Shown: positions 25,562 to 54,752 of the stretch, one piece after another | Layout of the letters: the number at the start of each line of letters is the position of its first letter | Position numbering within the stretch: the first letter of the stretch is position 1 | NCBI GenBank assembly: GCA_041661005.1 | Contig: JBAZVG010000001.1 | Location: 735,515-799,514, forward strand | DNA: 64,000 bases | Direction of reading: 5' to 3' | Source: Minisyncoccota bacterium | GTDB lineage: Bacteria > Patescibacteriota > Minisyncoccia > Phycocordibacterales > UBA9973 | Notes under the pieces: generated by a model | The model's database searches: none | What the model was told of the DNA's origin: nothing | What the model saw: only the letters and a program-made list of their open reading frames with translations | Position numbers and translations under genes: made by a program

Positions 25562-25689
25562 TAGATGGTTGTTTAGTCTAAATTATAATCTGGTCAATAC
25601 ACCTTAAAAAGTATTACGTTTAATCTCTTTAATCCTTCGATGCCAATATATGGTCACGGATGGAAACAAAAGAGAAAAAACGGTAAACA

Positions 25690-25722
25690 AAAAACCACCC
25701 CGACGGGGGTGGTTTTTTGTTG
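25690..25722 (+). terminator. rho-independent terminator
   Basis: The stem 'ccaccccgacgggggtgg' is followed by 'ttttttgttg'. Confidence 0.75.
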
Positions 25723-25755: not shown

Positions 25756-27870
25756 ATGACTAAAATTATAAAAATATGTCTTTTAGCGCTTGCTTTCGCA
25801 CCTCTGATCTTTGATTTGAATGTTTTTTTCCCTTATATATCCAGTAAGAGTCTTTTTATACAGTTTTTTTTGCTTTTGGCTACTCTTTTATTTGCTGGTT
25901 ATTTTATTTATTCTAGAAGTTTCAGACAGGAAATCAGTGATAAGATTTCCATACATCTAAAGCATCCGCTTGTCCTTTCTATTCTATCTTTCATTCTTGT
26001 GTTCGCAGTGAGTGCTATTTTTGCTGTAGATAAGTATGGCGCTTTTTGGGGAAATATAGAACGGGCAGAAGGATTAGCTAACACGATGTTTTTCTTCGTT
26101 TTCTTTATTTTAAGTTTACTAGTATTTAAAAAAAAGGATTGGGTGTGGTTTTTAAAGTTGAGTTTGTTAACAACTTTGATTTTATTGGGCAAAGAATTTT
26201 TTGAGTTTTTCAATGGGGTACCACGACCAGGGTCATTTGCTGGCAACCCGACATTTTTGGCTGGATACTTACTTTTTTCAATCACTGCGTCAATAATTGT
26301 GTTTAGGGAGTCAATCCCGTTAGAGATCACGAGGGTTCGCAGTGGGCGTCTATCTCTAATGGGATGGAAATCTTTATCTGTAATTGTCGTTATTTTTTCG
26401 GTTTTAGGCATATTTATCGCTCAGACTAGGGGTACAATATTAGGGCTTGCTTTTGGTGTTTTAGGCTCTCTAATTTATTGTGTTTTCAGGGGTAAAAATA
26501 TTGTTTACAAAGGTCTTAATTTACGTAAAATATCGGCTGGCATTCTTTTTTTCTTTGTTCTTTTTTCTATAATCTTTATTTTAACCAGAGAGAATGATAT
26601 ATGGCAAAAAGTTCCCGGTTTATCCAAAGTGGCGTTAATAAATATTAATAACATTGAAGATGGTTCAATGAAGGACAGATTGCTTGCCTATAAGCCAAGC
26701 ATAGAAGCCGTCAATCCAACACAGAATGGATGGAAAAAATTTTTAATCGGCTGGGGTCCGGATAATTTTATTCTTGCTTATGGTGAGTATTTCAGTCCAG
26801 CGCAAGCGCAACATGACTCAACCTGGCTTGACAGAGCTCACAATCAACTCTTGGATGTTTTAGTGATGAGTGGGCTTCTGGGGCTTTTAGCATATTTGTC
26901 AATATGGTTTTTATTTTTTCGTTCCATTCTGAATAGAAAAACGGATTTCTCTTTAATCAATATGGGGTTTCTTCTTTTTGGTATTTCATTTTTCGTTCAC
27001 CTTTTATTTGTTTTTGAACAAACAACATCATCTATAGCATTTTTTACCGTTCTTGCTTTTGCCGTCTATTCTACCACTGACGATGTCTCCAAAGAGTCAA
27101 GGAATGATTCAAAAAAATCTAAAACAAGTGGTAGGGGGACATTGATAATGGGAAGTTTTTTTGTATTTTCGACATTTTTCTTGTGTTTTATTTTTTTTAG
27201 AAATACTTTACCCTCCTATTTTCAAATGAGGAATTATTTTTCTATAATAAAAAATCCAAGTCCTACCACTTTTGAAAGTATTGATTCAGTTTTTTTTCCG
27301 TTTACCACTGCCCAAATGGATATTAGAGAGAACTTTTTGAAATGGGTTGGTGATAATTACTACAAAATAGACGCTAAAATAGCCAAACCGTTATTTGAAA
27401 AGGCGCTCATTAGAGCGGAAGAATATATAGCGAAAAGACCACAGAATTTTTTATTTCTAGCTTCTCTGGCTGATGTCTATACAAATAAGGGCGACTCTTT
27501 AAAGAGTATTGCATATGTTGAGAAAGGGGAGGAATATTTCAGGCAAATGCTTTTATTTGCTCCAAACAAGTCAGATATTAATTATGGCTTGGCTATAAAT
27601 TTAGCTTACCAGAAAAAGTTTGAAGAATCTTTTAGTTTTTTTGAAAAAGTATTTTTTATGAACCCAAAATTTTTCTCGCAACACAGAAAGGTAGCCGAAA
27701 GTATTTATACTAATTTTATTAAATATTTTTACGAAAAAAGAGACAAAAAAAATTTTTTAAGAACAGTTGAAAGACTGAAGAAAAATAACTATACCAATTC
27801 AGCTCCCCTCGATAAAATTCTTGAGTATTTAGAAAAAAATAACACTTGGCCAAGGGTTGATTTTGAATAA
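25756..27870 (+). CDS. O-antigen ligase/polymerase-like membrane protein with C-terminal TPR-like region
   Basis: The N-terminal half has about 10 TM helices, and 'GWGPDNFILAYGEYF...WLDRAHNQLLDVLVMSGLLGLLAYL' matches the Wzy_C/WaaL signature. The C-terminal soluble region is helical-repeat-rich. Confidence 0.65.
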   Translation: MTKIIKICLLALAFAPLIFDLNVFFPYISSKSLFIQFFLLLATLLFAGYFIYSRSFRQEISDKISIHLKHPLVLSILSFILVFAVSAIFAVDKYGAFWGNIERAEGLANTMFFFVFFILSLLVFKKKDWVWFLKLSLLTTLILLGKEFFEFFNGVPRPGSFAGNPTFLAGYLLFSITASIIVFRESIPLEITRVRSGRLSLMGWKSLSVIVVIFSVLGIFIAQTRGTILGLAFGVLGSLIYCVFRGKNIVYKGLNLRKISAGILFFFVLFSIIFILTRENDIWQKVPGLSKVALININNIEDGSMKDRLLAYKPSIEAVNPTQNGWKKFLIGWGPDNFILAYGEYFSPAQAQHDSTWLDRAHNQLLDVLVMSGLLGLLAYLSIWFLFFRSILNRKTDFSLINMGFLLFGISFFVHLLFVFEQTTSSIAFFTVLAFAVYSTTDDVSKESRNDSKKSKTSGRGTLIMGSFFVFSTFFLCFIFFRNTLPSYFQMRNYFSIIKNPSPTTFESIDSVFFPFTTAQMDIRENFLKWVGDNYYKIDAKIAKPLFEKALIRAEEYIAKRPQNFLFLASLADVYTNKGDSLKSIAYVEKGEEYFRQMLLFAPNKSDINYGLAINLAYQKKFEESFSFFEKVFFMNPKFFSQHRKVAESIYTNFIKYFYEKRDKKNFLRTVERLKKNNYTNSAPLDKILEYLEKNNTWPRVDFE

Positions 27871-28856
<986 letters not shown>

Positions 28857-28873
<17 letters not shown>

Positions 28874-29834
28874 AAAAAGAGCGTTAGTGTGTGGTGCCGG
28901 TGGTTTTATCGGCAGTCACTTAGTCAAAAGATTAAAAAAAGAGGGATATTGGGTGCGTGGAGTTGATTTAAAAAATCCGGATTTTAGTCCGACCGAAGCT
29001 GACGAATTTGTTATTGGCGATTTGCGGGATCAGGCAGTATGTAGGAAAGTTCTTGATCAATCATTTGAAGAAGTATACCAATTGGCCGCTGATATGGGTG
29101 GCGCAGGATACATTTTTACCGGAGAACATGATGCAGATGTTATGCACAATTCGGCAACTATAAATTTAAACATTGTAGACCTAGCTCATAAAAATAAAGT
29201 TGGTAAAATATTCTATTCTTCATCTGCTTGTATATATCCAGCTTATAATCAAGAAGATCCGAACAATCCGAAATGTTCCGAAGATTCTGCATATCCAGCT
29301 GCACCAGATTCAGAATATGGTTGGGAAAAGCTTTTTAGCGAACGTCTTTATCTTAGTTATTTTCGTAACTATGGTTTACAAGTGCGAATAGCTCGATTTC
29401 ATAATATTTTTGGTCCCGAAGGGACATGGAAGGGCGGTAAAGAAAAGGCTCCCGCCGCTATTTGTCGAAAAATAGCTGAAGCAAAAGAAGAAGATGAAAT
29501 TGAGATTTGGGGTGATGGTGAACAAACCAGATCTTTTCTTTATATTGATGAGTGTGTTGAGGGCGTTAGACGTCTTATGGATTCTGATTTTACTGGTCCT
29601 GTAAACATTGGTTCTGATGAAATGGTTACAATTAATCAATTGGCTGAGGTGGCAATGAGTGTGGCAAACAAAAAACTTTCAATAAAACATATTTCAGGCC
29701 CACTCGGAGTTAGGGGCAGGAATTCTGATAATGCTCTTATTAAACAAAAGTTAAATTGGGCTCCCAATGCACCGCTTACCGAAGGGATAGAGAAAACTTA
29801 TACCTGGATTGAAAAGCAGGTTGCGAAAAAATAA
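28857..29834 (+). CDS. GDP-mannose 3,5-epimerase (GME-like SDR)
   Basis: It is near-colinear with plant/bacterial GME: 'LAADMGG.G.I', 'FYSSSACIYP', 'YG.EKL', 'RIARFHNI.GP.GTWKGG.EKAPAA.CRK', 'WGDG.QTRSF..IDECVEG', 'NIGSDEMV', 'RGRNSDN'. Confidence 0.8.
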
Positions 29835-29939: not shown

Positions 29940-30701
29940 ATGAAAACAATTATACTTTGCGGGGGTATGGGTACTCGTATGAAAGAAGAAACTGAATTTA
30001 AGCCAAAACCAATGGTTTTGATAGGTGGCAAGCCGATTTTGTGGCACATAATGAAAATATACAGCCATTACGGGCATAACAATTTTGTTTTGGCTTTAGG
30101 ATATAAAGGGGATATGATTAAAAACTATTTTTTGGATCAAAGGGCTTTCCTTAATGATTTCACCATAAATGTTTTAAACGGAAAAACAGATTTTCATAAC
30201 AATGAGGGAGATGATTTTAATGTTACCTTAGCTGAAACTGGCCAGGAGTCAGAAACAGGAGAAAGGATATTGAAATTAAAAAAGTATATTACAGAGGATG
30301 AATTTATGGTGACTTTCGGAGATGGGGTTTCCGATATTGATATTAATAATCTTGTGGATTTTCATAGAAAACAAGGAACCGTCGGGACAATAAGCGGCTT
30401 CCACCCATATAGTAAATATGGATTAGTCAAGATAGATGAAAACAGCAACAAAGTTATTAATTTTGAACAAAAGCCAATTCTTTTTGATTATACAAGCGGA
30501 GGATTTATGATTTTTAATAAAAAGGCATTTGATTATTTTGATAATGGCCCCATGGAAAACGGATTGATAAAAATGGTTAAAGATGGTCAATTATCTATGT
30601 ATAAACACGAAGGGTTCTGGAAACCGATGGATACATACAGAGAAGTGGAGGAATTAAATAAGCTTTGGGAAGAAGACCCAAAGTGGAAAATATGGAAATA
30701 A
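29940..30701 (+). CDS. rfbF: glucose-1-phosphate cytidylyltransferase
   Basis: 'KTIILCGGMGTRMKEETEFKPKPMVLIGGKPILWHIMKIYSHYG' matches the RfbF/DdhA N-terminus. Confidence 0.8.
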   Translation: MKTIILCGGMGTRMKEETEFKPKPMVLIGGKPILWHIMKIYSHYGHNNFVLALGYKGDMIKNYFLDQRAFLNDFTINVLNGKTDFHNNEGDDFNVTLAETGQESETGERILKLKKYITEDEFMVTFGDGVSDIDINNLVDFHRKQGTVGTISGFHPYSKYGLVKIDENSNKVINFEQKPILFDYTSGGFMIFNKKAFDYFDNGPMENGLIKMVKDGQLSMYKHEGFWKPMDTYREVEELNKLWEEDPKWKIWK

Positions 30702-31627
30702 AAAGAAAAAAAATTTTAGTTACAGGAGGAGCTGGTTTCATTGGTTCCAATTTGGTTAATGAATTGATAAGGCGGGGCAATAAAGTTGTTGTAGTAGACG
30801 ACCTGTCTTCGGGTAGAAGAGAAAATATAAATAAAAAGGTTAAATTTTATAAAGTCGATGTCAGAAGTAAAAAAATTGTTGAAATATTTAAAAAGGAAAA
30901 ACCAAAAATAGTTTTTCATCTTGCTGCAAAGGCATTAGTTGAAGACGTTTTTAAAAACCCCCAAGAAGCGATTGATGTTAATGTTATGGGTACAGTAAAC
31001 GTTTTGGAAGCTTGCAGACAGCAAAAGGGCATAGAATCAATTATAGTAGCCTCTTCTGATAAAGCATATGGTAAGTCAAAAAATCTTCCCTATGCAGAGC
31101 ATTATTCTTTAATGGGGGATCATCCTTATGACGTCTCAAAAGCATCGGCTGATTTAATAGCTAAAACATATTTTTCAACATATGGTTTACCGGTTAAAAT
31201 TACAAGATTTTCAAATGTTTTCGGTCAAGGGGATTATTCTTTTTCAAGAATAATCCCGGCTATAATGGAAGCCGTAGCGAGAAATAAGATATTGCTTATA
31301 AGAAGCGATGGAAAAATGATTAGAGAATATACTCACGTTAAAGACATTGTGGAAGGTTGCATAAGGCTTGCCGAGCATAAAGAAAATTATGGCGAAGCTT
31401 TTAACTTTGGAAGCAAAAATATTTTTAGCGTTATAGAATTAGTTGAAAAATCAGGACACATTCTCGGGGCGAAAATCAATTGTAAAATATTAAACACGAC
31501 AAAAAATGAGATTCCCGAACAATACCTTGATTGGACCAAAGCAAAAACAATATTAAATTGGGAGCCAAAAATAAGTTTTGATCAAGGAATTAAAGAAACT
31601 TTTAACTGGTTTATAAATGAATTGTAA
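30692..31627 (+). CDS. NDP-sugar 4,6-dehydratase/epimerase (extended SDR; CDP-glucose 4,6-dehydratase-like)
   Basis: 'TGGAGFIGS', 'SSDKAYG' and YxxxK 'YDVSKAS' motifs are present. The start overlaps the rfbF stop. Confidence 0.6.
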   Translation: MEIKRKKILVTGGAGFIGSNLVNELIRRGNKVVVVDDLSSGRRENINKKVKFYKVDVRSKKIVEIFKKEKPKIVFHLAAKALVEDVFKNPQEAIDVNVMGTVNVLEACRQQKGIESIIVASSDKAYGKSKNLPYAEHYSLMGDHPYDVSKASADLIAKTYFSTYGLPVKITRFSNVFGQGDYSFSRIIPAIMEAVARNKILLIRSDGKMIREYTHVKDIVEGCIRLAEHKENYGEAFNFGSKNIFSVIELVEKSGHILGAKINCKILNTTKNEIPEQYLDWTKAKTILNWEPKISFDQGIKETFNWFINEL

Positions 31628-32834
31628 AAATTGTGAAAATGAATTAAAAGAATTTCTTTCTTTGGGGCAGATGCCTTTGATTAATTCTTTTTTAAAGGAA
31701 GAGGATATTGCAAAGGAAAAGAAATTCAATCTTAGCGTGGGGTTTTGCCCAAAATGTTTTTTAGTACAACTTATGGATATAATTCCGCCGGAAGAACTTT
31801 TTAGAGACTATATTTATTTTTCTTCCACCTCTCAATACTTTTTAGATCATTGTAAAGAAGTTGCTGATGACATGGTTAAAAGATTTAATCTTAATAAAGA
31901 CAGTTTGGTTTTGGAAATCGCCAGCAACGACGGAGCACAACTACAATATTTTAAAGAATTAGGAGTGTCCGTGTTGGGCGTTGACCCTGCAAAAAATATT
32001 GCAAAGGTTGCAAACGAAAAAGGAATAGAAACTATTACAGAATTTTTTAATTTTGATTTTGCTAAAAAGTTAAAAACGAAAAAAAAGATACAAGCAGATT
32101 TGATTTTTGGTGCCAATGTTTTAGCTCATGTGCCAGAAATTGTTGATTTTGTAAAAGGCGTAAAAGAAATTTTAAAACCAAAAGGCACTGCTGTTTTTGA
32201 ATTTCCTTATGTAAAAGGCTTGATGGATAATAAATTCGACACCATTTATCACGAGCATGTTTTTTATTATTCTTTATTGGCTTTGATAAATTTATTCAAA
32301 TCTGTGGATCTGGAAATTTATGATGTAAAGCTTACGCCAATGCAAGGCGGTTCGCTTATGATTTTTATCTCTAATTCTGGAGTTTTTCAAATAAGTGAGA
32401 ATATAGTAAATCTTAAAGCAGAAGAACTTAAAAGTGGATTTGATAAATTTGAAACCTACCAAAAAATGAATGAGAATATTCTAAAATTAAAAAATGAATT
32501 GATTAGTTTTTTAGAAAAAATTAAAAAAGACGGTAAAAAAATTGCAGCTTATTCAGCTCCAGCAAAAGGAAATATTTTATTAAATTATTTTGGGATTAAT
32601 GAAAATTATTTAGATTTTATTGTCGACAAGTCAAAAGCAAAGCAAGGTTTATATACACCAGGAACTCATTTGTTGGTATATCCTTTAGAGAAGATATATC
32701 AAGGAAAGCCAGACTATCTTTTGATTCTGTGTTGGAACATTACTCAAGAAGTAATGGATATGATAGAATTACAAGAATATAAGAATAAAGGAGGGAAGTT
32801 TATTACACCAATACCAAATATAAAAATATTATGA
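31617..32834 (+). CDS. NDP-hexose C-methyltransferase (TylC3/NovU-like; zinc-ribbon plus SAM-MT plus C-MT C-terminal domain)
   Basis: The N-terminal CxxC...CxxC ('CKNCENEL...CPKCFLV') is followed by SAM-binding 'LEIASNDG'. The C-terminal domain and the ~405-aa length are typical of sugar C-3/C-5 methyltransferases. Confidence 0.7.
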   Translation: MNCKNCENELKEFLSLGQMPLINSFLKEEDIAKEKKFNLSVGFCPKCFLVQLMDIIPPEELFRDYIYFSSTSQYFLDHCKEVADDMVKRFNLNKDSLVLEIASNDGAQLQYFKELGVSVLGVDPAKNIAKVANEKGIETITEFFNFDFAKKLKTKKKIQADLIFGANVLAHVPEIVDFVKGVKEILKPKGTAVFEFPYVKGLMDNKFDTIYHEHVFYYSLLALINLFKSVDLEIYDVKLTPMQGGSLMIFISNSGVFQISENIVNLKAEELKSGFDKFETYQKMNENILKLKNELISFLEKIKKDGKKIAAYSAPAKGNILLNYFGINENYLDFIVDKSKAKQGLYTPGTHLLVYPLEKIYQGKPDYLLILCWNITQEVMDMIELQEYKNKGGKFITPIPNIKIL

Positions 32835-33355
32835 TTTTTAAAGAAACAAAAATTAAAGATCTATATATAATTAAGCCTGAGTTGAAGATTGATGAAAGGG
32901 GAAATTTTGCAAGAACTTTTTGCAAGGAAGAATTGAAAAAACAAGGCTTGGTTTTTGATATTGTGCAGGCAAACCAATCATTGACAGTTAAAAAGGGAAC
33001 GATTAGGGGGATGCATTTTCAAAAAGAGTCTAAAGCAGAGGGGAAAATTGTTCAATGTTTAAAGGGGAAAATTTATGATGTGGCTGTTGATTTGAGAAAA
33101 AATTCTTTAACTTATGGGCAATGGGTAGCCGAGAAGTTAACAGAGGAAAATAAAAAAATGTTTTTTTTGCCAAAGGGATTTGCTCACGGCTTTCAAACTT
33201 TAAGTGGTGATTGCATTGTCCAATATTTTATGTCGGAATTCCATTTTCCAGAATATGGCTCTGGGGTAAGATACAATGACCCATTTTTAAATATAGCTTG
33301 GCCGATTAAAAACCCTAATCTTTCAGAAAAAGATAAGAATTGGCCTTTATTATAA
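32831..33355 (+). CDS. NDP-4-keto-6-deoxyhexose 3,5-epimerase (RmlC-like cupin)
   Basis: 'IKDLYIIKP....DERG.F.....K......G......Q.N.S....G..RG.HFQ' is the RmlC pattern. Confidence 0.7.
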   Translation: MIFKETKIKDLYIIKPELKIDERGNFARTFCKEELKKQGLVFDIVQANQSLTVKKGTIRGMHFQKESKAEGKIVQCLKGKIYDVAVDLRKNSLTYGQWVAEKLTEENKKMFFLPKGFAHGFQTLSGDCIVQYFMSEFHFPEYGSGVRYNDPFLNIAWPIKNPNLSEKDKNWPLL

Positions 33356-33369
33356 TTATGAGAAATAAA

Positions 33370-34431
33370 ATGATGAGCGAAATTAATATAATTGAACAAG
33401 ATTGGAAAGAAGTCATTTTAAATGTCGGCTCAAAAAGGCTGAAAAATTTTAGTAAAAAGACAATATTAATAACCGGGGCAAATGGCTTTATTGGCAGGTC
33501 TTTAGTTTATTTTTTTATATATTTAAATGAAAATTTTTCAACAAATATTAAACTTATTTTAATTGCTAAAGAAGCAAAATTTGATTCAAAGATAAGCAAT
33601 TTGATAAAAAACAAAAAATTAAAATTTATTAAACATGATATCTTAAAAAAAACTAGCATTAATGAAAAAATTGATTATGTTTTTCATTTGGCAGCTGTAA
33701 TTTCTCCTAAATTTAATTCAACAAACCCTGTGGAGGCTTTAAAAATAAATGTTATTGGAACGGAAAATATATTAGATGCTTTAAAAAATATAAAAATTAC
33801 CAAATTCTTATATTTTAGTAGTGCTGGAGTTTATGGTAATCCAGATAAAAAAAATATTCCTACTAAAGAAGAATTTAATGGAAATGTGTCTCCAGTTTCT
33901 TTTAGGTCTTGTTATGCTGAGGGCAAACGAGCTGGAGAAGCTTGCACTATGGCTTATTTTAGGCAATATAATCTTCCTATAAATATAGTGCGCCCAGCTC
34001 ATATGTATGGTCCATTAATGAGGCTTAATGAAGATGTTACTATAAATTATTTCTTAAACTGCGGTTTAGCAAAAAAAGATATTGTTTTGCAGACCAAAGG
34101 CCAAGATACAAGATCTTTTTGCTATATAACAGATGTTTTATCAATTGTTTTGTTAGTTTCTTTAATGGCAAAATCTGGAGAAATTTTTAATATTAGTAAT
34201 GAAAAAGCAGAAGTTAAAATAATAGATTTGGCTGAATTAATATGTAAAATTTTTGATAATAAAATTAAGGTTAAAATTCAAGAGAAAAGCAAGACAAATT
34301 TTTTTAAGTCGCCCATGACAAGAAATGTTCCCAGTATGGAAAAAGTTAAAAATGTTTTAAAATTTACTCCAAAAATTACTTTAAATGATGGATTAGTGAG
34401 AATAATTAATAATTTAAAATTAAATAAATAA
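33370..34431 (+). CDS. NAD(P)-dependent sugar epimerase/reductase (SDR)
   Basis: 'ILITGANGFIGRS' and a YxxxK motif ('YAEGKRAGE') are present. It is probably the 4-ketoreductase of the pathway. Confidence 0.6.
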   Translation: MMSEINIIEQDWKEVILNVGSKRLKNFSKKTILITGANGFIGRSLVYFFIYLNENFSTNIKLILIAKEAKFDSKISNLIKNKKLKFIKHDILKKTSINEKIDYVFHLAAVISPKFNSTNPVEALKINVIGTENILDALKNIKITKFLYFSSAGVYGNPDKKNIPTKEEFNGNVSPVSFRSCYAEGKRAGEACTMAYFRQYNLPINIVRPAHMYGPLMRLNEDVTINYFLNCGLAKKDIVLQTKGQDTRSFCYITDVLSIVLLVSLMAKSGEIFNISNEKAEVKIIDLAELICKIFDNKIKVKIQEKSKTNFFKSPMTRNVPSMEKVKNVLKFTPKITLNDGLVRIINNLKLNK

Positions 34432-34437
34432 AAATAA

Positions 34438-36033
34438 ATGATTGTTTTAGGACTACATAAAAATCCATGGCACGACACAGGAGCTTGCATTATATCTGAT
34501 AAAAGCGGTTCTTTTGAAGTGTGCTCTATAAGCGAAGAAAGGCTAAATAGAGAGAAAGATTCAAGAGTTTTCCCGGAAAGAGCCATAAAGGCTTGTATGG
34601 AAAAGCTGGATATTAAAAGTTATGCTGAAATTGATTTTGTGGTAATGGACTATATTGAAGATAAAGATTGGCGCAAAGACAACATTGAACATAAAGAAAG
34701 AATCCATGAAATTTTAAAAGAATTTCCTGAAGATAAAATAATTGTTATTAATCACCATTTGGCTCATGCCTCTGCGACATACTTTTCATCACCTTTTAAT
34801 AGCGCATCAGTTTTAGTGATAGATGGGAGAGGGTCGAATAAAGAAACTCAAAGCATTTTTATTGCCAAAGATAATCAAATAAAACCCTTGGAATCAACAA
34901 GTAAAATGGGAATTGGGCTGTTATATTCGACTGTAACTAGAAAGATTGGATTTAAGGTTTTAGAGGAAGGAAAAGTAATGGGACTGGCTCCGTATGGAAA
35001 GGAATATAATCGAAAGATTTTTAATTTTCCCGAAAGATTCAGTGGCATAGAAACTGACTTTGAAGATGTTATGGTTTTAGGCAAATATGAATTAACAAAG
35101 GAATATGATAAAAATATAGAAACACTTGAGGATAAAAAAGTAGCAGCCTTTGAAATCCAAGACTTGTGTGAAAAAGTATTTTTGCACTTGGCAAATTATG
35201 CTAAAAAAATAACCAATGAAGATTATTTATGTCTTTCTGGGGGAAGTTCTTTAAACTCAGTCTCAAATTACAAAGTATTAAAATCAGGGTTTTTTAAAGA
35301 TGTTTTTATTAATCCCGCAGCTTCAGATACAGGAATTCCGTTGGGGTGCGCGCTTTATGGTTACCATGTTTTAGGAAATAAACCTAAAACATATAAAGAG
35401 ATAAGCCCTTACTTGGGACCAGAATATACAATTAATGATATAAAAAAAGCTATTAAAGAATTTAGCGGTTATAAAATAGTACGCAAAGATGCAAAACCCG
35501 AGGCAGTTAAAATGCTTTTAGAAAATAAAATTATTTCAATATTTTGGGGAAGGTCTGAAACAGGTCCTAGGGCTTTGGGAAATAGATCCATTGTGATGAG
35601 TCCAATGATTGCTGAAAATAAAGATGTTTTAAACGCTAGAGTAAAACACAGAGAATCTTTTAGGCCTTTTGCTCCAGCAATATTAGTAGAACATTTGCAA
35701 GAATATTTTGATATACCAAGACCAGAGCCATATATGCTTACTGTTCCTATGGTTAAAGAAGATAAAAAAAAGTTAATTCCAGCTGCCACTCATTATGACG
35801 GCACAGGCAGAGTGCAAAGTGTTTCCAAAGAATTAAATAAAAATTTTTATGAATTAATTGAATTATTTTATAAAAAAACTAAAGTGCCTGTATTGATTAA
35901 TACGTCATTTAATGTGGCGGGAGAACCAATAGTTGAAAGCCCCAAAGATGCTATTAAGTGTTTTTTGGGAACTGATATTGATGCTTTATTATTTGAAAAT
36001 ATTTTATTGATAAAAAATAAACTTGCTAATTAA
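34438..36033 (+). CDS. carbamoyltransferase (NodU/CmcH/NovN family)
   Basis: The N-terminal 'ILGL...HD..A........E.ER..R.K' is present, along with 'INHHLAHASATYF' and 'LVIDGRGS'. The ~530-aa length fits the family. Confidence 0.8.
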   Translation: MIVLGLHKNPWHDTGACIISDKSGSFEVCSISEERLNREKDSRVFPERAIKACMEKLDIKSYAEIDFVVMDYIEDKDWRKDNIEHKERIHEILKEFPEDKIIVINHHLAHASATYFSSPFNSASVLVIDGRGSNKETQSIFIAKDNQIKPLESTSKMGIGLLYSTVTRKIGFKVLEEGKVMGLAPYGKEYNRKIFNFPERFSGIETDFEDVMVLGKYELTKEYDKNIETLEDKKVAAFEIQDLCEKVFLHLANYAKKITNEDYLCLSGGSSLNSVSNYKVLKSGFFKDVFINPAASDTGIPLGCALYGYHVLGNKPKTYKEISPYLGPEYTINDIKKAIKEFSGYKIVRKDAKPEAVKMLLENKIISIFWGRSETGPRALGNRSIVMSPMIAENKDVLNARVKHRESFRPFAPAILVEHLQEYFDIPRPEPYMLTVPMVKEDKKKLIPAATHYDGTGRVQSVSKELNKNFYELIELFYKKTKVPVLINTSFNVAGEPIVESPKDAIKCFLGTDIDALLFENILLIKNKLAN

Positions 36034-36634
36034 TATGGAAAAAAAATTGGATAAAATATTTTATTTTTACACTCGGCCAATATTTTTTTGGGCAAAAATT
36101 AAAACTCAGTTTTTTTATAAATTATTTTTTGGAAAAATTGGCAGTGGCACAATGATTGTTAAAGCTGATTTAATTTTAAATCCGTCAAATATTTTTATTG
36201 GTAAAAATACAGTTATTCATAGTAATGCTAGGATTTTATGTATTACAAAGCACCGTGGCGGGCAAAAATTTAATCCTAAAATTGATATTGGAGATGATGT
36301 AAAAATTCAGCAAGGATCTCATATTTCTTGCACCAATGAAATAACTATTGAAAGTGGTGTCTCTATTGCTCCGAATGTAAAAATACTAGATAGTGACCAC
36401 ATGTATACTAACACATCAACGCCTATTCATAATCAAAAACTTTCGATAGGTTCAATTTTTATTGGTGAAAATTCTTTGATTGGAGCAGGGGTGGTTATTT
36501 TAAAAGCTAAAATAGGTAAAAATTGCATAGTGGGAGCGAATGCAGTAGTTAAAGGAGATTTCCCTGATTACTGTATTATAGCTGGTGTGCCAGCTAAAAT
36601 TATTAAATATATAAATGAAGGAGCTAATAAGTAA
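36023..36634 (+). CDS. hexapeptide-repeat acyl/acetyltransferase (TTG start)
   Basis: It has left-handed beta-helix repeats '[LIV]G.N..IG.G..I' and a C-terminal 'IIAGVPAKIIK'. Confidence 0.7.
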   Translation: MLINMEKKLDKIFYFYTRPIFFWAKIKTQFFYKLFFGKIGSGTMIVKADLILNPSNIFIGKNTVIHSNARILCITKHRGGQKFNPKIDIGDDVKIQQGSHISCTNEITIESGVSIAPNVKILDSDHMYTNTSTPIHNQKLSIGSIFIGENSLIGAGVVILKAKIGKNCIVGANAVVKGDFPDYCIIAGVPAKIIKYINEGANK

Positions 36635-36638
36635 GATT

Positions 36639-38153
36639 ATGTCAAAACTCTCACGAAATATTATTTATAATTTACTTGGTCAAGGGTCATTATTGATAAT
36701 CAGTTTTTTGGCGGTTAAATATATTTTTCATCAATTAGGCGCCGAGGCCTTGGGCATAATATATTTTACAATAGCCATGAATACAATCTTGGCTGTGGCC
36801 CTTGAAATGGGAGTTTCTTCTGCTTTAGTTAGAGAAATTTCAAGCCATTTTGATTCTGATAAAGAATATATCAAGAAACTCATACATACTTTTTCATTTT
36901 TTTATTGGGGTATTTATTTAGTAGCTGCTTTGATAATTTTTTTTATGGCGCCATTTTTTGTTCAAAAATGGATTCATTTAAGCTCAATAAGTCCTGATCT
37001 TGCTATAAATATTATTAGAATTTTAGGTATTACATCTGTCACAACTTTATTAGTTTCTTTTTATTCTAGTTTAATACGTGGGTTGCAAAAGATGAAATTT
37101 AATAATTTAATTGATGTAGTTTCTGGCATATTGCAACAGGGCGGGGCTCTTTTGATTTTGATTTTAAATGGAAGTTTGATGTTGGTAATTTATTGGTTTG
37201 CTATAAGTTATATTTTAAAAGTATGTATTTATTTTCTAGTTTCTGGTTATTTATTTTCCTTTCCAGCTCTTACGCCCAAATTTTCAAGTGCAGTTATTAA
37301 AAGAAATTTTAAATTTATTTTAAACACAACTTTTATTTCTATTTTTTCCACTATTCATATCCAGGCAGATAAAATTTCTATTAGTAAGTTTTTACCTATT
37401 TCAACCTTAGGATATTACAGTTTAGCTTATACTGCTGTTTCGCAGGCCACTTTGCTTACTGATTCAGTTAGCATGGCAGCTTATCCTTCTTTTTCTTCTT
37501 TGGCAAAAGAAAAAGATAAAAATGAGTTAATGTCGCAGTATTACAAATTGCAAGATTTACTTTGTTTTGGTATTCTGCCAATATTTGCAGCTATTCCCTT
37601 TGCTCTGGTGCCGGTATTTTCTTTTCTTTTTAATGCTCAGATTGCTAACTTATTACTGTTGCCAACAACTTTCCTATGTTTGGGTATTTATATGAATGGA
37701 ACAGTAACAATACCTTATGTGTTTTCCCTTGCTGTTGGTAAACCAAATATTACTGCAAAGATGAATTTTTACGCTTTATTTATTGTTTTGCCTCCGTCGG
37801 TGATTTTAATTTATTTTTTTGGTTTGCCTGCTGCTGGTTTATATTTAGTGTTTTATCATATCTTTGCTTATTTTTATAGCATACCCAAAATATGTAAAGA
37901 ATGTTTGGGCATTAAAGTAAAAGATTGGTATTTTCATATTTTTAGAATTTTTATTCTTGCAATTTTAACTTATGGCACGTCTTGGTTTATTTTAGGAGTA
38001 ATCAACAACCATTCAATTTTTGCGTTAATTTTAGCTTATTTACTTTCCTCAGTTGTTTATTTATATTTTTCTTATTTTTTAATTACAAAAGAGCTTAAAA
38101 AAACACTTTTTTATTATGTGCAATTATTATTAAATATTAAAAAATCAAAATGA
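36639..38153 (+). CDS. oligosaccharide flippase (Wzx/MOP superfamily)
   Basis: It has ~12-14 TM helices and starts with the typical 'LSRNIIYNLLGQGSLLIISFLAVKYI'. Confidence 0.65.
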   Translation: MSKLSRNIIYNLLGQGSLLIISFLAVKYIFHQLGAEALGIIYFTIAMNTILAVALEMGVSSALVREISSHFDSDKEYIKKLIHTFSFFYWGIYLVAALIIFFMAPFFVQKWIHLSSISPDLAINIIRILGITSVTTLLVSFYSSLIRGLQKMKFNNLIDVVSGILQQGGALLILILNGSLMLVIYWFAISYILKVCIYFLVSGYLFSFPALTPKFSSAVIKRNFKFILNTTFISIFSTIHIQADKISISKFLPISTLGYYSLAYTAVSQATLLTDSVSMAAYPSFSSLAKEKDKNELMSQYYKLQDLLCFGILPIFAAIPFALVPVFSFLFNAQIANLLLLPTTFLCLGIYMNGTVTIPYVFSLAVGKPNITAKMNFYALFIVLPPSVILIYFFGLPAAGLYLVFYHIFAYFYSIPKICKECLGIKVKDWYFHIFRIFILAILTYGTSWFILGVINNHSIFALILAYLLSSVVYLYFSYFLITKELKKTLFYYVQLLLNIKKSK

Positions 38154-39310
38154 ACGAGAATCAAAATTCAAAGCCTTTAATTTCTTTAATTATCCCAACC
38201 CGAGAGCGAGCTGATACTCTGTTGTTTGCTATAAAAACTGCGCTGGATCAAGACAGTAATTCTTATGAGGTAATTATTAGTGATAACTTTAGTCAGGATA
38301 ACACAAAAGAAATTGTTCAAGGTTTTAATGATTCGCGTTTGGTTTATATTAACACTGGTAAGCGTTTATCAATGTGTGATAATTTTGAATTTGCTCTAAA
38401 CCATGCCAAAGGGGAATATACAATTTTTATTGGAGACGATGATGCCATTATGCCACATGCTATAGACAAATTGCAGAATACCATTAAAAATAAATCTGAT
38501 TATTCTGTATTTTGTTGGCACAAACCAATTTATCTTTGGCCAAAAGGCGGGCAGGATGCTTCTATTTGGATTTTACCTTTTAACACGCGATTATATGAAG
38601 TTGATTTAAAAAAGCGAGCAAAGTTTGTAATTAGCATGGGTGGAACTGGCTGCGGTCTTTTACCCTCAATATATCATTGCGCTGTTAAGAAATCTGTCTT
38701 AGAAAAAATAAAAAACCAGACTGGTCGGGTTTTTCATTCCACAACTCCAGATATTGGTACAGCTTTTGCTTTACCGGTTTTTTTAGATAAAGCTCTTAAC
38801 GTTGATTATTTAGTAACCATTACTGGTCAATCTCCTAAATCAAATAGCGTGACAACATACACAAAGGGTGATCAATTAAATACAAGAAAATTTCTTGAAG
38901 AATACAAAGGTTATAAAATTCATAAATCCTTATTCCCTGGGATAGATCCAGTGGCTAATTTAATGCCAGATACTATTTTAGTTGCAATGGATAAGTTTCC
39001 TAAATTCTATAGTGGCATGAAGTTTAATTATAATGCTATGTGGTCCAGGTTGCTTAAATCATCAAACGATTATAATTTAGGGCTTACTATTACTAAAATT
39101 ATTCAGAAAAGAAAACAAATAAATCAGTATCATAATTTTAACTCAATTAAGTTCTTGTTTTATTGTATTTTCTGGAAATTACCTGATTTGTATAGGCAGT
39201 TATCTCATAAAACTGTGGAACTGGGGCCTTTTGCAAAAAAAGTACCAGATAATATTAGTGACTTTGTTAAACAACTCGCTATTTATGAAAAATCGCGTAA
39301 AATAAAATAA
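38150..39310 (+). CDS. family 2 glycosyltransferase
   Basis: 'ISLIIPTRERADTL..AI.....Q.....EVIISDNFSQDNT' is the GT-A DxD-type N-terminus. Confidence 0.7.
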   Translation: MNENQNSKPLISLIIPTRERADTLLFAIKTALDQDSNSYEVIISDNFSQDNTKEIVQGFNDSRLVYINTGKRLSMCDNFEFALNHAKGEYTIFIGDDDAIMPHAIDKLQNTIKNKSDYSVFCWHKPIYLWPKGGQDASIWILPFNTRLYEVDLKKRAKFVISMGGTGCGLLPSIYHCAVKKSVLEKIKNQTGRVFHSTTPDIGTAFALPVFLDKALNVDYLVTITGQSPKSNSVTTYTKGDQLNTRKFLEEYKGYKIHKSLFPGIDPVANLMPDTILVAMDKFPKFYSGMKFNYNAMWSRLLKSSNDYNLGLTITKIIQKRKQINQYHNFNSIKFLFYCIFWKLPDLYRQLSHKTVELGPFAKKVPDNISDFVKQLAIYEKSRKIK

Positions 39311-39325: not shown

Positions 39326-40240
39326 ATGAATGTTAAAAATAAAAGAATTTTAGTAACTGGAGGAGCTGGGTTTATTGGATCACATGTTACAGATGCGCTT
39401 ATTAAAGCTGGAGCTATTGTAAGTATAATTGATAATTTGTCTACTGGCAGGAAAGAAAACATAAATCCAAATGCTACATTTTATGAAATAAATATTGCTG
39501 ACTTAAAAATTAAAGATATTTTTGAAAAAGAAAATTTCGAGATAATTTATCATTTTGCTTTTAATGTTTTAGTTCCTAAATCGGTTGAAAATCCTTTAAT
39601 TGATATGGACAGTATTGCGGGGTCTCTTAATGTTTTGATTAATGCGCAAAAATATGGAGCAAAGAAAATTATTTTTTCTTCTTCGGGTTTTATATATGGC
39701 AATACACAGAATTTACCAGCCAAAGAATCAGAACCAGTTGATCCAATTTCTCCGTATGTTGTTTCAAAATATGCAGTTGAAAATTATTTAAAATTCTTTA
39801 ATAAAGCCTATAATTTGCCTTATGTAGTTTTTAGAAATGCAGCGGTTTATGGTCCAAGGCAAATAACAGGAGCAATGGCAGATTATATCAGAAAATTAAA
39901 GGCAGACAAGCAAGCTGACATTTGGGGAGATGGAAACAAGACAAGGGATTATGTTTTTATTGATGATGTTGTAAATGCCAATATTTTAGCTCTGGATTTA
40001 CCAGATGATTTTTCAGATCCAGTTTTTAATTTAGGAAGTGGCAAAGAAACAACTTTAAATGATTTATACAAAGGCATTGCTAAACTGCTGGGCAAAGAGG
40101 CAAAACCCATTTATCATCCCGAAAGGCCAGGAGAGCAAATTAGATATTGTCTTGACAATTCAAAGGCAAAAAGAGAACTTGGATGGAAGATTAAATATAA
40201 TCTAGATGAAGGATTAAAAATTTTAATATCTAAACAATGA
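39326..40240 (+). CDS. NAD-dependent sugar epimerase/dehydratase (SDR)
   Basis: '[13 protein letters not shown]' and YxxxK 'YVVSKYAVE' motifs are present. Confidence 0.7.
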   Translation: MNVKNKRILVTGGAGFIGSHVTDALIKAGAIVSIIDNLSTGRKENINPNATFYEINIADLKIKDIFEKENFEIIYHFAFNVLVPKSVENPLIDMDSIAGSLNVLINAQKYGAKKIIFSSSGFIYGNTQNLPAKESEPVDPISPYVVSKYAVENYLKFFNKAYNLPYVVFRNAAVYGPRQITGAMADYIRKLKADKQADIWGDGNKTRDYVFIDDVVNANILALDLPDDFSDPVFNLGSGKETTLNDLYKGIAKLLGKEAKPIYHPERPGEQIRYCLDNSKAKRELGWKIKYNLDEGLKILISKQ

Positions 40241-41079
40241 AGAAATTATTTTTTAACGCGTATAGAATATTTTTGATTGGTATGTCTTTGCCTATTATTT
40301 TATCTGGTTTTTTTAATAAAAGAACTGGTCAAGAATATGGGATTACATTTTTTAGCAAAATTCGTCTTCTCCTACAGATGGTGAGAAATAACTTTAAAAT
40401 AAAGACGGCATCACGATTTGTAGAACATATTTTAATGGCTGAGGCGATATTTAGAGTTCCTAAATCTGTTGAAGGAGCCGTAGTTGAGGCAGGTGTTTTT
40501 AAAGGGGGAAGCGCAGCAAATTTATCATTAGCATGTGCAATGTGCTCCAGAGAGTTGCTACTCTTTGATTCGTTTAAGGGTCTTCCTGAGCCAGATTTGA
40601 AAGACAAAAAGCATATAATTTTAAGTAATAAAGAAACGCACGCCTACCAGAAGGGTGCTTGGACCGGAACATTGAGCGAAGTCAAGAAAAATATTTCTAA
40701 CTATGGGAATATAAATGTCTGTAAATTCTATGAAGGATTTTTTGATCAGACTCTGCCCTTGTTTGAAGATGATGTAATTTTAGTTTTTTCTGACGCAGAC
40801 CTTAAAAAATCCACTGAAACGTGCTTGAAATATTTGTGGCCATTGTTGAATGATAACGGACTGTTTTTTATACATGAGGCGGCTCACAATGATTTGGTTT
40901 CTTTATTCTTTGATAAATTATGGTGGAGAGATAATTTAAATTCAGAGGTGCCATGTTTGATAGGGGCGGGCAACGGGTTAGGTTTGTATCCTAGCGACGG
41001 AGGATACAAAAGCAGTCTAGCTTACACAATAAAGAATCCAGATGTTTCTAAATTCAAGGAGATGCCGCCTGAAGTATGA
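40237..41079 (+). CDS. TylF/MycF/NovP-family sugar O-methyltransferase
   Basis: 'GAVVEAGVFKGGSAANLSLA' and 'LLLFDSFKGLPEPD....DADL..ST...L' match the macrocin-O-methyltransferase fold. Confidence 0.65.
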   Translation: MKKLFFNAYRIFLIGMSLPIILSGFFNKRTGQEYGITFFSKIRLLLQMVRNNFKIKTASRFVEHILMAEAIFRVPKSVEGAVVEAGVFKGGSAANLSLACAMCSRELLLFDSFKGLPEPDLKDKKHIILSNKETHAYQKGAWTGTLSEVKKNISNYGNINVCKFYEGFFDQTLPLFEDDVILVFSDADLKKSTETCLKYLWPLLNDNGLFFIHEAAHNDLVSLFFDKLWWRDNLNSEVPCLIGAGNGLGLYPSDGGYKSSLAYTIKNPDVSKFKEMPPEV

Positions 41080-42347
41080 AAAATTTAAAAATGACTTCAA
41101 ATAACAAAATTAAAGTTTTGGTTTGCGCATTTGCGTGCTTAAAGAACCCTGACACAAGGTTTGGTTTTGGCGATGGCGGGGAAGGAGTTTTGGGTTGGAA
41201 CATAGTTTTACAATTAAACAGGTTTTTTGATGTTTCGGTTTTAACCCATTCTGACAATAGGGCAGCCATAGAAGAAAAAATTGCAGTTAGTAAGGTTACG
41301 GGAATAGATTTTTATTACTTAAAACTCCCTGCATTTTTAAATTTTACAAAAAGAGTAATGCAGATTTATGCTTATCTTTGGCAAATAAAAGCTTATTTTG
41401 TTGCAAGAAAACTGAATAAAGGGAATGGGTTTGACGTTTTTCATCACGTTACATATGCAAACGATTGGATGGCCAGTTTTATTGGAGCGCTTTTGCCCAT
41501 TCCTTATGTAAGGGGCCCGGGAGGAGGCGCCCATAGAGTGCCAAAACGATTTGTTGACGAATATTCTATCAAGCAGCGGGCGGCAGAAAAAATTAGAAGT
41601 ATTGGGCAGTGGGTTTTTAAACGAGATTTTTTTTTTATAATTGGAAACAATCGAGCGAAAGCTATTTTGGTTTGCAATAAAGAGGCCTTTGATGCCTTGC
41701 CTAGAAAATGGCAAAAAAAATCATACTTTTTCCCTGTTAACGGGATTTCTGCCGAGGATTTAAAACTGCTTGATTTGCATAAGGAAAAAATAAGATATGG
41801 TTTTTCTGTTTTGACTGTTGGGAAATTGGTCAAATTAAAGGGATTTGATATGGCGATAAAGGCTTTTAAAATTTTCAGTGACAAAGTTCTAGAAGCAAAA
41901 TTAGTTATTGTCGGCAAAGGGCCTGAAATAAATAATTTGGAAAATTTAGTGGCAGAATTTGATATAAAAGATAAGGTCGTTTTTGAGGGCTGGCTTTCTC
42001 GTGAGGAAGTTTTAAAAAAGATGTCCCTTTCAGATGTTTTTTTGTTTGCGAGTTTAAGGGATGGCGGAGGCGCAGTTGTTGTGGAGGCTATGGCGGCAGG
42101 CAAGCCAGTCATTTGTTTTGATCTGGCCGGACCGGGTCTTCATATTGATGAAAAGTGTGGGATAAAAATAAGGCCTGATAGTCCTGGCCAGGCAGTTAGA
42201 GACATGGCGACGGCTTTAGAAAAATTGTATTTTAGTGAAGACTTAAGATTAAGTCTTGGTAAAGAAGCAAGAAAGAAAGCGGAAAGGGAATATGATTTGG
42301 ATAAGCTGGGCAATAAGTTAAATGAAATTTACAAAAATATTTTATGA
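41076..42347 (+). CDS. family 4 (GT-B) glycosyltransferase
   Basis: A C-terminal 'E..G......VV.EAMAAGKPVI' motif is present. Confidence 0.75.
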   Translation: MKNLKMTSNNKIKVLVCAFACLKNPDTRFGFGDGGEGVLGWNIVLQLNRFFDVSVLTHSDNRAAIEEKIAVSKVTGIDFYYLKLPAFLNFTKRVMQIYAYLWQIKAYFVARKLNKGNGFDVFHHVTYANDWMASFIGALLPIPYVRGPGGGAHRVPKRFVDEYSIKQRAAEKIRSIGQWVFKRDFFFIIGNNRAKAILVCNKEAFDALPRKWQKKSYFFPVNGISAEDLKLLDLHKEKIRYGFSVLTVGKLVKLKGFDMAIKAFKIFSDKVLEAKLVIVGKGPEINNLENLVAEFDIKDKVVFEGWLSREEVLKKMSLSDVFLFASLRDGGGAVVVEAMAAGKPVICFDLAGPGLHIDEKCGIKIRPDSPGQAVRDMATALEKLYFSEDLRLSLGKEARKKAEREYDLDKLGNKLNEIYKNIL

Positions 42348-44554: not shown

Positions 44555-45865
44555 TCAATGTGTAAAAATAATTTGGATTGTTCGAAGAATAATACCAAAA
44601 TCCATAAAAATATTTCTGTTTTTTATGTAATATAAATCGTATTCAAATTTTTCTTTTGATTCTTCTATCCCTCTTGCATTTCTAAATTTTATTTGCGCCC
44701 AGCCGGTAAATCCGGGTGTAATTATATGACGCAATCCGTAATGAGGTATTTCTTTGCTGAGTTTTTCTTCGAAAGAGATAATTTCCGGCCTTGGTCCCAC
44801 TAAGGACATTTCGCCTTTTATCACATTCCAAAGTTGCGGAACTTCATCAATGTGAAGTTTACGAATAATTTTACCCACTTTTGTAATTCTCTGGTCATTT
44901 TTTTCAGTCCACTCTGCTCCATTTTTATCGGCATTTACAAACATTGAACGGAATTTGTAAAGCTTGAAAATTTTACCGTTCTTTCCAACTCGGAGTTGAG
45001 TATAAAATACAGGACCCCTGTCATTGAGTTTGATAAATAAAGCAACAATAAGAAGAAAAGGAAAGGTAGCTAAAAGAATAATAAAAGCAACAACGACGTT
45101 CATAAGATGACTAATTATTTTGTGAAAAATTGTAGTTGTGTTTTGGATATTATGCAGGAACCATGTTTCATCGATAGAGTCGACTGGAATTTTTCCAAGG
45201 ATGTTTTCGTATGCATATGTTAAATCCAAGATATTTTTTGCCACACTATATATTAGTATTAAATCCTTTGTTTCCTTCAATGAATTTTTAGATATTATAA
45301 GCGTATCAACTTGTTTTTGGTCTTGTCTTGTCATAAATTCTTCTAAAGAAGAATATGTACCCAAAACGTAAAAACCGGATTGTGGGCAAATTTTTATGTA
45401 ATTTATAATCTTTCTTATGCAATTACTGTCTTTGTTTTGTTCCACAACAAAAGCTATTTCTTTACGAAAATATACCGAGAAAATATTGTAAAAAATTCTT
45501 CTCCAAATTAGAAAGAAAAGAACAAAGATCGCGCTGAATATAACTAAATTGGTTTTTGGCGTAATGCCGAAAGATGGAACCAAATAAAACAAAATAGTAC
45601 TTGTAGCTAAAGCTACCATAGAAGCAATGCCGATTATTCTTAGGTGGGGGATGGTTGGTTTTACCGACTCTGTTTCGTATAAATTAAAAAGGAAAAAAAC
45701 CAAAAGCCATATACCAAAGACAAGCAAGAAAGGAAAAAAGTGGTCACTGATGACATCATGCGAAATTCTATTAGGGAACCTTATTACAAGCATCAAAAAA
45801 AATGCTACAACTAACATTATTATGTCGCCAAGGAGAAGTAGTACTGTTCGAACCTTATTTCTCAT
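44555..45865 (-). CDS. polyprenyl-phosphate sugar phosphotransferase (bacterial sugar transferase, WbaP-like)
   Basis: The C-terminal 'DEVPQLWNVIKGEMSLVGPRPE' is present, with N-terminal TM helices. Confidence 0.8.
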   Translation of the reverse strand: MRNKVRTVLLLLGDIIMLVVAFFLMLVIRFPNRISHDVISDHFFPFLLVFGIWLLVFFLFNLYETESVKPTIPHLRIIGIASMVALATSTILFYLVPSFGITPKTNLVIFSAIFVLFFLIWRRIFYNIFSVYFRKEIAFVVEQNKDSNCIRKIINYIKICPQSGFYVLGTYSSLEEFMTRQDQKQVDTLIISKNSLKETKDLILIYSVAKNILDLTYAYENILGKIPVDSIDETWFLHNIQNTTTIFHKIISHLMNVVVAFIILLATFPFLLIVALFIKLNDRGPVFYTQLRVGKNGKIFKLYKFRSMFVNADKNGAEWTEKNDQRITKVGKIIRKLHIDEVPQLWNVIKGEMSLVGPRPEIISFEEKLSKEIPHYGLRHIITPGFTGWAQIKFRNARGIEESKEKFEYDLYYIKNRNIFMDFGIILRTIQIIFTH

Positions 45866-45930
45866 GCCTTTATGATACTTTTTTAAAGACGAAAAAACAA
45901 GTTGATATTTTTTATGTTTTTTGTGCTAGA

Positions 45931-52470: not shown

Positions 52471-52507
<37 letters not shown>

Positions 52508-54053: not shown

Positions 54054-54096
<43 letters not shown>

Positions 54097-54752
54097 ACCT
54101 TGTCGGGTAAGTTCCGACGCGCACGAATGGTGTAATGACTGGAGAACTGTCTCGGGGACCAGCTCGGTGAAAATACAATACCGGTGAAGATGCCGGTTAA
54201 GTGCAGTTAGACGAAAAGACCCTATGAAGCTTTACTATAACTTTATATTGAGCATGTTTTTGGACTGCGTAGAATAGATGGGAGAGGTCTGATGGATTCG
54301 TTCTTGGATGAATTCTACTCAACAGTGAAATACCATTCTTTTTGAAGGCATGTTCTAACCAAAACGGCAAAAACGTTTTGAGACAGTATATGGTGGATAG
54401 TTTTACTGGGGCTGTACCCTCCTAAAGAGTAAAGGAGGGGTTTAAAGGTCAGCTAGGCGCGAATGGAAACCGTGCCGATAGTGTATGAGCACAAGCTGGC
54501 TTGACTGTAAGAGGTACATCTCAAGCAGGTGGGAAACCAGAATCAAGTGAACCGACCACCCGTGTTAGACGCGGTGGAAGATTAACGGATAAAAGCTACT
54601 CTAGGGATAACAGGCTAGTTCCGCCCAAGAGTTCATATCGACGGCGGAGTTCGGCACCTCGATGTCGGCTCACCTTAGCGCGGCGGCGGAGAAGCTGCCA
54701 AGCGTTTGGCTGTTCGCCAATTAAAAAGGTACGCGAGCTGGGTTCAGACCGT

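Follow-up and report, generated by a model that had tools for sequence, protein, structure and literature searches.

A predicted GDP-mannose 3,5-epimerase in a surface-glycan operon of a Candidatus Paceibacterota bacterium

The first bacterial GDP-mannose 3,5-epimerase (GME, or GM35E) to be characterised was MfGM35E (I0K0X9) of Methylacidiphilum fumariolicum SolV, reported in 2019 (Gevaert et al., PMC6678494). That enzyme was experimentally active and 50.5% identical to Arabidopsis GME (AtGME); its gene adjoins glycosyltransferase and methyltransferase genes, and a role in lipopolysaccharide (LPS) or glycan synthesis was proposed for it (PMC6678494). Other bacterial GME homologues, namely BlmG of the bleomycin cluster (Q9FB21), which is 42% identical to AtGME and a proposed former of NDP-L-gulose, and the GM35E of the A201A pathway, provide units of L-gulose or L-galactose, a function that has been either proposed or demonstrated (PMC6678494). 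A 2022 review states that GM35E occurs in bacteria with a role in LPS or glycan synthesis (PMC8787198). Here we describe a GME gene in a 64,000-nucleotide stretch of contig JBAZVG010000001.1 (assembly GCA_041661005.1, positions 735,515 to 799,514), hereafter called the window. The host belongs to Candidatus Paceibacterota, currently Minisyncoccota at NCBI, i.e. the Patescibacteria or candidate phyla radiation (CPR), and the window has a low GC content of 29-46%. In our literature search no publication connected GME with Patescibacteria, and when we looked for L-galactose in polysaccharides of bacteria, nearly all the papers retrieved dealt with plant ascorbate.

The gene is a single intact open reading frame (ORF) on the + strand at 28857..29834, stop codon included, with an ATG start and 325 encoded residues in the ORF listing of the window. 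A first-pass annotation had called it a GME gene from its motifs, and the coordinates, the strand and every motif quoted there proved correct. The translation carries AADMGG, SSSACIYP, RFHNIFGPEGTWKGGKEKAPAAICRK, WGDGEQTRSFLYIDECVEG and RGRNSDN, and each of these motifs aligned column for column with AtGME when we used phmmer to search all PDB chain sequences. AtGME was the top match (E=4.1e-103, 348.6 bits) and the alignment spanned query residues 9-324 of 325; parsing it gave an identity of 52.7% (164/311 aligned positions), in the same range as that of the active MfGM35E to AtGME. The five best distinct PDB sequences were all GMEs (2c59, 2c54, 2c5a, 2c5e and 8sg0; 338-349 bits, E=4e-103 to 6e-100), four of them Arabidopsis variants and the fifth from Myrciaria dubia. 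Lower scores were obtained for UDP-xylose synthase (103 bits), GalE-type chains (65-93 bits) and GDP-fucose synthase (Fcl, ~81 bits). These results upheld the earlier choice of a GME over a generic UDP-sugar epimerase, since the next class of enzyme reached 103 bits against 338-349 bits for the GMEs.

Structure prediction gave the same picture. The AlphaFold2 model of the window protein had a mean predicted local distance difference test score (pLDDT) of 80.6 and a predicted template modelling score (pTM) of 0.83, and the 14 best Foldseek matches to the PDB were all GME chains, with template modelling (TM) scores of 0.81-0.87 (0.86 at the top) and E values of 1e-36 to 4e-32. The first match outside GME, to other short-chain dehydrogenases/reductases (SDRs), dropped to E=2e-22. 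In sequence as in fold, characterised GMEs were closer to the protein than was any other characterised NDP-sugar SDR. The fold is that of an extended SDR with an N-terminal glycine motif in its Rossmann domain (GAGGFIG, residues 13-19), in keeping with the Pfam assignment to the Epimerase family (PF01370, 157.9 bits). The ORF, PDB, Pfam and Foldseek results identify the protein as an extended SDR and a GME/GM35E (CEP1 family) orthologue.

The residues that define GM35E, and that also separate it from GalE and from the GDP-fucose synthase GMER, are listed in the review, where GMER has a His as base and a Lys as the residue that acidifies the Cys, and GalE is without the Cys/Lys pair (PMC8787198). 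All eight were present in the window protein when it was aligned with AtGME, whose residue numbers we give after each; all coordinates here are on the + strand. The SDR triad comprises S123 (S143) together with Y154 (Y174) and K158 (K178), the last two in the YxxxK segment Y154-G-W-E-K158 at 29316..29330. The alignment to 2c59 places S123 beside the catalytic acid C125 (C145) in S123-A-C125 at 29223..29231, within SSSACIYP. The catalytic base is K197 (K217; 29445..29447), a position occupied by Lys in GM35E enzymes and by His in GDP-fucose synthase, and the Arg that acidifies the catalytic Cys is R288 (R306; 29718..29720), which is Lys in GDP-fucose synthase. R225 (R243; 29529..29531) corresponds to a contact with the substrate diphosphate, and N183 (N203; 29403..29405) to the conserved Asn of the ‘orange wall’ in the heptagonal-box model. 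The Cys/Lys pair on which the first-pass annotation had rested its suggested check was thus found, together with R288. The NAD-binding motif G13-A-G-G16-F-I-G19 (GxxGxxG) lies at 28893..28913. The [ST]xnYx3K triad, the Cys/Lys pair and the Arg/Arg/Asn set of GM35E are therefore all contained in the protein; judged from sequence, it has every feature by which membership in the class can be tested at that level.

These residues were also conserved among relatives. A word-indexed search yielded at least 8,000 candidates, and the best 120 clusters were all 77-100% identical to the window protein. The eight defining residues were invariant in 120/120 close homologues, and 74-89 of the 91 full-length sequences that represent clusters formed at 50% identity retained each of them. 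Likewise, G13, G16 and G19 were invariant in 119-120 of the 120 close homologues and in 88-90 of the 91 representatives. Pairwise codon comparison with Patescibacteria relatives gave a nonsynonymous divergence (dN) of 0.07-0.16 and, with synonymous divergence (dS) saturated, a dN/dS of about 0.03-0.08, and therefore the GME gene is under strong purifying selection. Orthology, the match of the AlphaFold model, the catalytic residue set and purifying selection are established here, as is the position of the gene in a surface-glycan operon (below). We concluded that the ORF very probably encodes a functional GM35E/GME (EC 5.1.3.18) of a Candidatus Paceibacterota bacterium, predicted to supply an L-galactose (L-Gal) or L-gulose (L-Gul) donor for a glycan. 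By analogy with the characterised enzymes, its substrate would be GDP-mannose and its products GDP-L-Gal along with GDP-L-Gul.

A mechanism can be proposed from the Arabidopsis and Methylacidiphilum enzymes (PMC6678494; PMC8787198). Tightly bound NAD+ and the S123/Y154/K158 triad would oxidise C4 of GDP-alpha-D-mannose, after which C125 as acid and K197 as base would invert C5 and then C3 through enolate intermediates, with R288 lowering the pKa of the C125 thiol. Re-reduction of the 4-keto group would give GDP-beta-L-galactose, and the 5-epimer, GDP-beta-L-gulose, would arise as a side product. Beyond the epimerase, the gene content of the locus suggests that a Bac_transf enzyme would start an undecaprenyl-phosphate-linked repeat unit, that one glycosyltransferase of the locus would add the L-hexose to it, that Wzx would flip the unit and that Wzy_C proteins would polymerise or ligate it. 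Because the GME gene is the third in an operon with Wzx, Wzy and glycosyltransferase genes for a surface glycan, its product most likely serves as a donor from which L-Gal or L-Gul enters a lipid-linked glycan of the cell surface. The first-pass annotation had likewise placed the gene in a glycan locus, which we confirmed, and had suggested GDP-L-Gal or GDP-L-Gul as donor for the envelope glycan, a role that the position of the gene in the operon would predict.

The same annotation had regarded L-galactose-containing bacterial glycans as rare. This may hold for the sugars, in that L-Gal and L-Gul are perhaps rarely reported in bacterial glycans, but it does not hold for the gene, which we found in many phyla. 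An exhaustive search of representatives gave 1,118 clusters at 50% identity with E<=1e-30, at least 150 of them above 266 bits, and when one genome of each GTDB species was scanned with six peptides of the window protein alone, at least 510 encoding stretches emerged, which puts close homologues in at least that many species-level genomes. We took the best 80 of these stretches as related loci (L002-L081). Their GMEs were 72-89% identical to the window protein, and their hosts were Patescibacteria, Bacteroidota, Ignavibacteriota, Acidobacteriota, Planctomycetota, Omnitrophota and Alpha-, Gamma- and Deltaproteobacteria, with Bradyrhizobium, Pseudokordiimonas and Antarcticirhabdus as cultured examples. 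Such identity across phyla (e.g., Bradyrhizobium, Bacteroidales, Planctomycetota and Acidobacteriota) is unusually high for an enzyme of a glycan locus, suggesting that constraint is very strong, that horizontal transfer is frequent, or both.

The GME gene lies in a long operon on the + strand. A strong bidirectional hairpin of 16 pairs, resembling a terminator, at 25686..25721 is the likely 5' boundary, and no other promoter or terminator signal between GME and its neighbours exceeded the shuffle expectation. The first operon gene encodes a 704-residue Wzy_C membrane protein (O-antigen ligase/polymerase; 25756..27870, +), and the second a GalE-like SDR (27871..28873, +, split by a +1 frameshift) that directly precedes GME and overlaps its start by 17 nt. 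Downstream of GME follow, all on the + strand, an RfbF-like glucose-1-phosphate cytidylyltransferase (29940-30701; 271 bits against a 300-bit cut-off), an NDP-hexose 4,6-dehydratase (30665-31627), a sugar 3-C-methyltransferase (31617-32834; 272 bits against 4RV9, a D-mycarose 3-C-methyltransferase structure), an RmlC-type 3,5-epimerase (32831-33355), an SDR reductase (33340-34431), a GdmN/NovN-like O-carbamoyltransferase (34438-36033; 245-258 bits) and a hexapeptide acetyltransferase (36023-36634). The Wzx flippase (36615-38153) is followed by a GT2 glycosyltransferase (38150-39310), a further SDR (39326-40240), a TylF-family O-methyltransferase (40237-41079), a GT4 glycosyltransferase (41076-42347) and a 736-residue fusion of a Wzy_C membrane domain with a WecG/TagA-family glycosyltransferase (42344-44554). 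A convergent gene on the - strand at the far end of the locus encodes the initiating phosphoglycosyl transferase, Bac_transf (44555..45865). Within the window, only GT2 and GT4 are candidates for using the product of GME, and either could be the transferase that would accept GDP-L-Gal or GDP-L-Gul. Neither GDP-L-galactose phosphorylase nor other downstream genes of the ascorbate pathway were seen in the window.

Several other features of the window deserve mention. The genes at 29940-36634 and 40237-41079 form a set typical of deoxysugar pathways of actinomycete antibiotics (mycarose- or noviose-like), here inside a CPR surface-glycan operon; taken from the nucleotidyltransferase to TylF, the set predicts a branched, methylated and carbamoylated 6-deoxyhexose. 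Just past the glycan locus lie genes for S-adenosylhomocysteine hydrolase (45802-47208) and S-adenosylmethionine synthetase (48847-49911), a placement that fits the three methyltransferase steps encoded by the locus. Farther on, a complete 23S rRNA gene (51970-54824) and a 5S rRNA gene (56663-56770) are ~1.8 kb apart with an ORF (55516-55995) in between. No 16S rRNA gene was found within the 47-58 kb stretch that was scanned, so the rRNA genes appear unlinked. At the other end of the window, 781-4866 encodes a class I aminoacyl-tRNA synthetase of 1,361 residues (Ile/Leu/Val/Met type) that has a histidine-phosphatase (His_Phos_1) insertion at residues 528-694 and an HD domain near its C-terminus.

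Some observations weigh against an active GME that feeds the glycan of this host. Of the ~50 window ORFs scanned with Pfam and NCBIfam models, none encoded a mannose-1-phosphate guanylyltransferase, a phosphomannomutase, a phosphomannose isomerase or a GMD, and the neighbouring nucleotidyltransferase is RfbF-like (CDP-glucose type), not ManC-like; the source of GDP-mannose would have to lie elsewhere in the genome, outside the window. When GMD, Fcl-like, GT11 and 6-dehydrogenase sequences from the related loci were used as tblastn queries against the 64 kb window, they matched paralogous SDRs only. No partner glycosyltransferase is shared between the window and its relatives, in that the GT2 and GT4 genes are not conserved beside GME in the 80 loci. 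The GalE-like gene immediately upstream is frameshifted in an A8 run (28047-28054), which leaves an N-terminal fragment (27871-28086) and a C-terminal fragment (28100-28873), and deleting one A restores the frame. The independent Logan assembly of run SRR18595301 was identical to the window over all 14,147 bases, frameshift included, and two fragments are called there as well. The split may reflect a pseudogene or slipped-strand phase variation, or else an error common to assemblies from the same reads, and part of the locus may thus be decaying or phase-variable. Lastly, the ratio of L-Gal to L-Gul products is not predictable from sequence.

We called ORFs in the 80 related loci, clustered the neighbours of GME and annotated cluster representatives. 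The window and its nearest Patescibacteria relatives (L003-L007) had a left flank in common, consisting of the hypothetical protein hyp292, a peptidoglycan-binding protein, a large membrane protein, a GalE-like SDR and GME. On the right side of GME, these loci and the window diverged completely. The kept left flank and divergent right side indicate that a hypervariable glycan locus has its conserved edge at GME. Genes for Wzy_C proteins were near GME in 13 related loci, GMD in 7/80, Fcl-like genes in 8/80 and GT11-family genes (the alpha-1,2-fucosyltransferase family) in 14/80. In three of the closest relatives the GT11 gene was directly downstream of GME (L004) or one gene further (L005, L007). 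With GMD and Fcl-like genes nearby in these loci, GDP-mannose-based chemistry is common around GME. A section title of the review treats promiscuous L-fucosyltransferases together with the production of L-galactosides, and the association with GT11 fits this title (PMC8787198). Two unusual architectures also came up in the representative search: the GME of P0121 has a C-terminal NodZ-like domain (alpha-1,6-fucosyltransferase family; a weak match of 31 bits), and that of P0134 is interrupted by a LAGLIDADG-type, intein-like insertion. Fucosyltransferases accept GDP-L-galactose. No GT11 or NodZ-type, fucosyltransferase-like enzyme was found in the 64 kb window.

A further partner bears on the role of the enzyme itself. 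A nucleotide-sugar 6-dehydrogenase gene, which matches TIGR03026 and passes no specific equivalog, adjoins GME in 16/80 loci. The two genes are separate and one base apart in L041 (6686-8005 and 8007-8978) and L067, and they are fused in frame in L048 (6687-8978), P0124 and P0192, which are Patescibacteria and other metagenomic sequences. Such adjacency and fusion hint at a GDP-L-hexuronate pathway not yet described. They also favour an alternative in which an enzyme of the GME clade has a shifted role, either as a dedicated 5-epimerase that forms GDP-L-gulose, as proposed for BlmG (PMC6678494), or as a GDP-hexuronate epimerase that is paired with the 6-dehydrogenase and yields a donor of the GDP-L-guluronate or L-galacturonate type. 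The carbamoyltransferase of the window might be added to this argument by comparison with the bleomycin sugars. The bleomycin pair consists of L-gulose and carbamoyl-mannose. However, tblastn found no 6-dehydrogenase in the window, and indeed none of the partners seen in relatives by fusion or adjacency (6-dehydrogenase, NodZ-like, GT11) is present there. The protein keeps all catalytic and diphosphate-binding residues of the GDP-mannose enzyme, and homologues 72-89% identical to it sit in loci without the dehydrogenase. We ranked a bleomycin-like pairing of GME and carbamoyltransferase low because the latter lies inside the separate block of CDP/NDP-6-deoxyhexose genes. For the window protein we therefore regard a shifted role as improbable.

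More improbable by a clear step is a gene that has become an inactive remnant, or that was acquired horizontally as a passenger and contributes nothing to the host’s glycan. The frameshift in the adjacent galE-like gene and the lack of GDP-mannose supply genes in the window would suit such a gene, and frequent horizontal transfer would be in keeping with the identity of 72-89% between unrelated phyla. Against this, the ORF is unbroken and carries every catalytic residue, its dN/dS is low, and the synteny of the left flank with L003-L007 argues for stable inheritance. Finally, it is scarcely credible that the protein merely resembles a GME and is instead a GDP-L-fucose synthase (GMER/Fcl) or generic GalE: its best NCBIfam model is an Fcl equivalog (NF047922), and its Pfam family and NCBI annotation are generic, but it scored 122.7 bits against the 500-bit cut-off of that model, 75.6 bits against the 262.3-bit cut-off of the GalE model TIGR01179 and ~81 bits against Fcl chains of the PDB as opposed to 348 for GME, while K197 takes the place of the GMER His, R288 that of the Lys acidifier, and the Cys/Lys pair missing in GalE is present.

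The observations on relatives of the window protein can be joined into a broader reading of three parts, which as a whole we hold to be doubtful. First, hypervariable surface-glycan loci of Patescibacteria and many other uncultivated bacteria may carry GME as a conserved gene at their edge, where L-Gal may serve as a fucose surrogate for ‘fucosyl’transferases of the GT11 or NodZ type. Second, the lineages that combine GME with the 6-dehydrogenase could form an undescribed pathway to a GDP-L-hexuronate donor (L-galacturonate or L-guluronate). Third, in the window the L-sugar may be combined with a 6-deoxyhexose that bears 3-C-methyl, O-methyl and O-carbamoyl groups and is normally found in actinomycete antibiotics.

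The class of enzyme, its mechanism and its occurrence in bacteria are already established, so the gene raises no new mechanistic question, and GME in Patescibacteria is a new but incremental observation at the level of the phylum. Its value is first that a specific function can be given to a protein labelled only generically by NCBI. The window protein is 100% identical to P0001, a protein in NCBI from an 813-kb contig of a Candidatus Paceibacterota metagenome-assembled genome (MAG), which is named ‘NAD-dependent epimerase/dehydratase family protein’, probably because no GME-named model was among the NCBIfam matches; many close homologues carry the Joint Genome Institute (JGI) name ‘GDP-D-mannose 3',5'-epimerase’. 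Second, the assignment predicts that a CPR bacterium has L-Gal or L-Gul in its surface glycan, and the chemistry of CPR envelopes is almost uncharacterised. The family is very common and very conserved in bacteria and chemically documented glycans with L-Gal or L-Gul are few, which suggests under-detection of the two sugars. The gene might also supply GM35E biocatalysts for the synthesis of L-sugars. Of greater interest are the associations of GME with GT11 and with the 6-dehydrogenase in relatives, and the antibiotic-style deoxysugar genes next door.

The closest plant systems are the GMEs of Arabidopsis (Q93VR3; 2C59, 2C54, 2C5A and 2C5E) and Myrciaria dubia (8SG0 and 8SKB). The window protein resembles them in the length of the catalytic core, the S/Y/K triad, the Cys/Lys pair, the equivalents of R306, R243 and N203, and the predicted fold (TM 0.86). 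It differs in being without the N-terminal extension of ~25 residues and the C-terminal extension of 30 residues of the plant enzyme, and its glycine motif is GxxGxxG as opposed to GxxGxxA in AtGME. Whereas the plant enzyme serves ascorbate and the cell wall, the predicted role of the window protein is in the synthesis of a bacterial surface glycan. Fcl/GMER/WcaG is likewise an extended SDR that uses a catalytic Cys in the 3,5-epimerisation of a GDP-hexose, but it has a His base and a Lys acidifier, acts on GDP-4-keto-6-deoxymannose and carries out a net reduction with NADPH. BlmG and the A201A enzyme belong to actinomycete secondary metabolism, whereas the window gene lies in a surface-glycan operon of the Wzx/Wzy type. 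MfGM35E, like the window protein, is bacterial, self-sufficient as a single polypeptide, similar in size and equipped with the same catalytic residues, including the Arg (R281 in the Methylacidiphilum enzyme). The two differ in their hosts, which are a thermoacidophilic verrucomicrobium and, for the window, a Patescibacteria MAG with a small genome.

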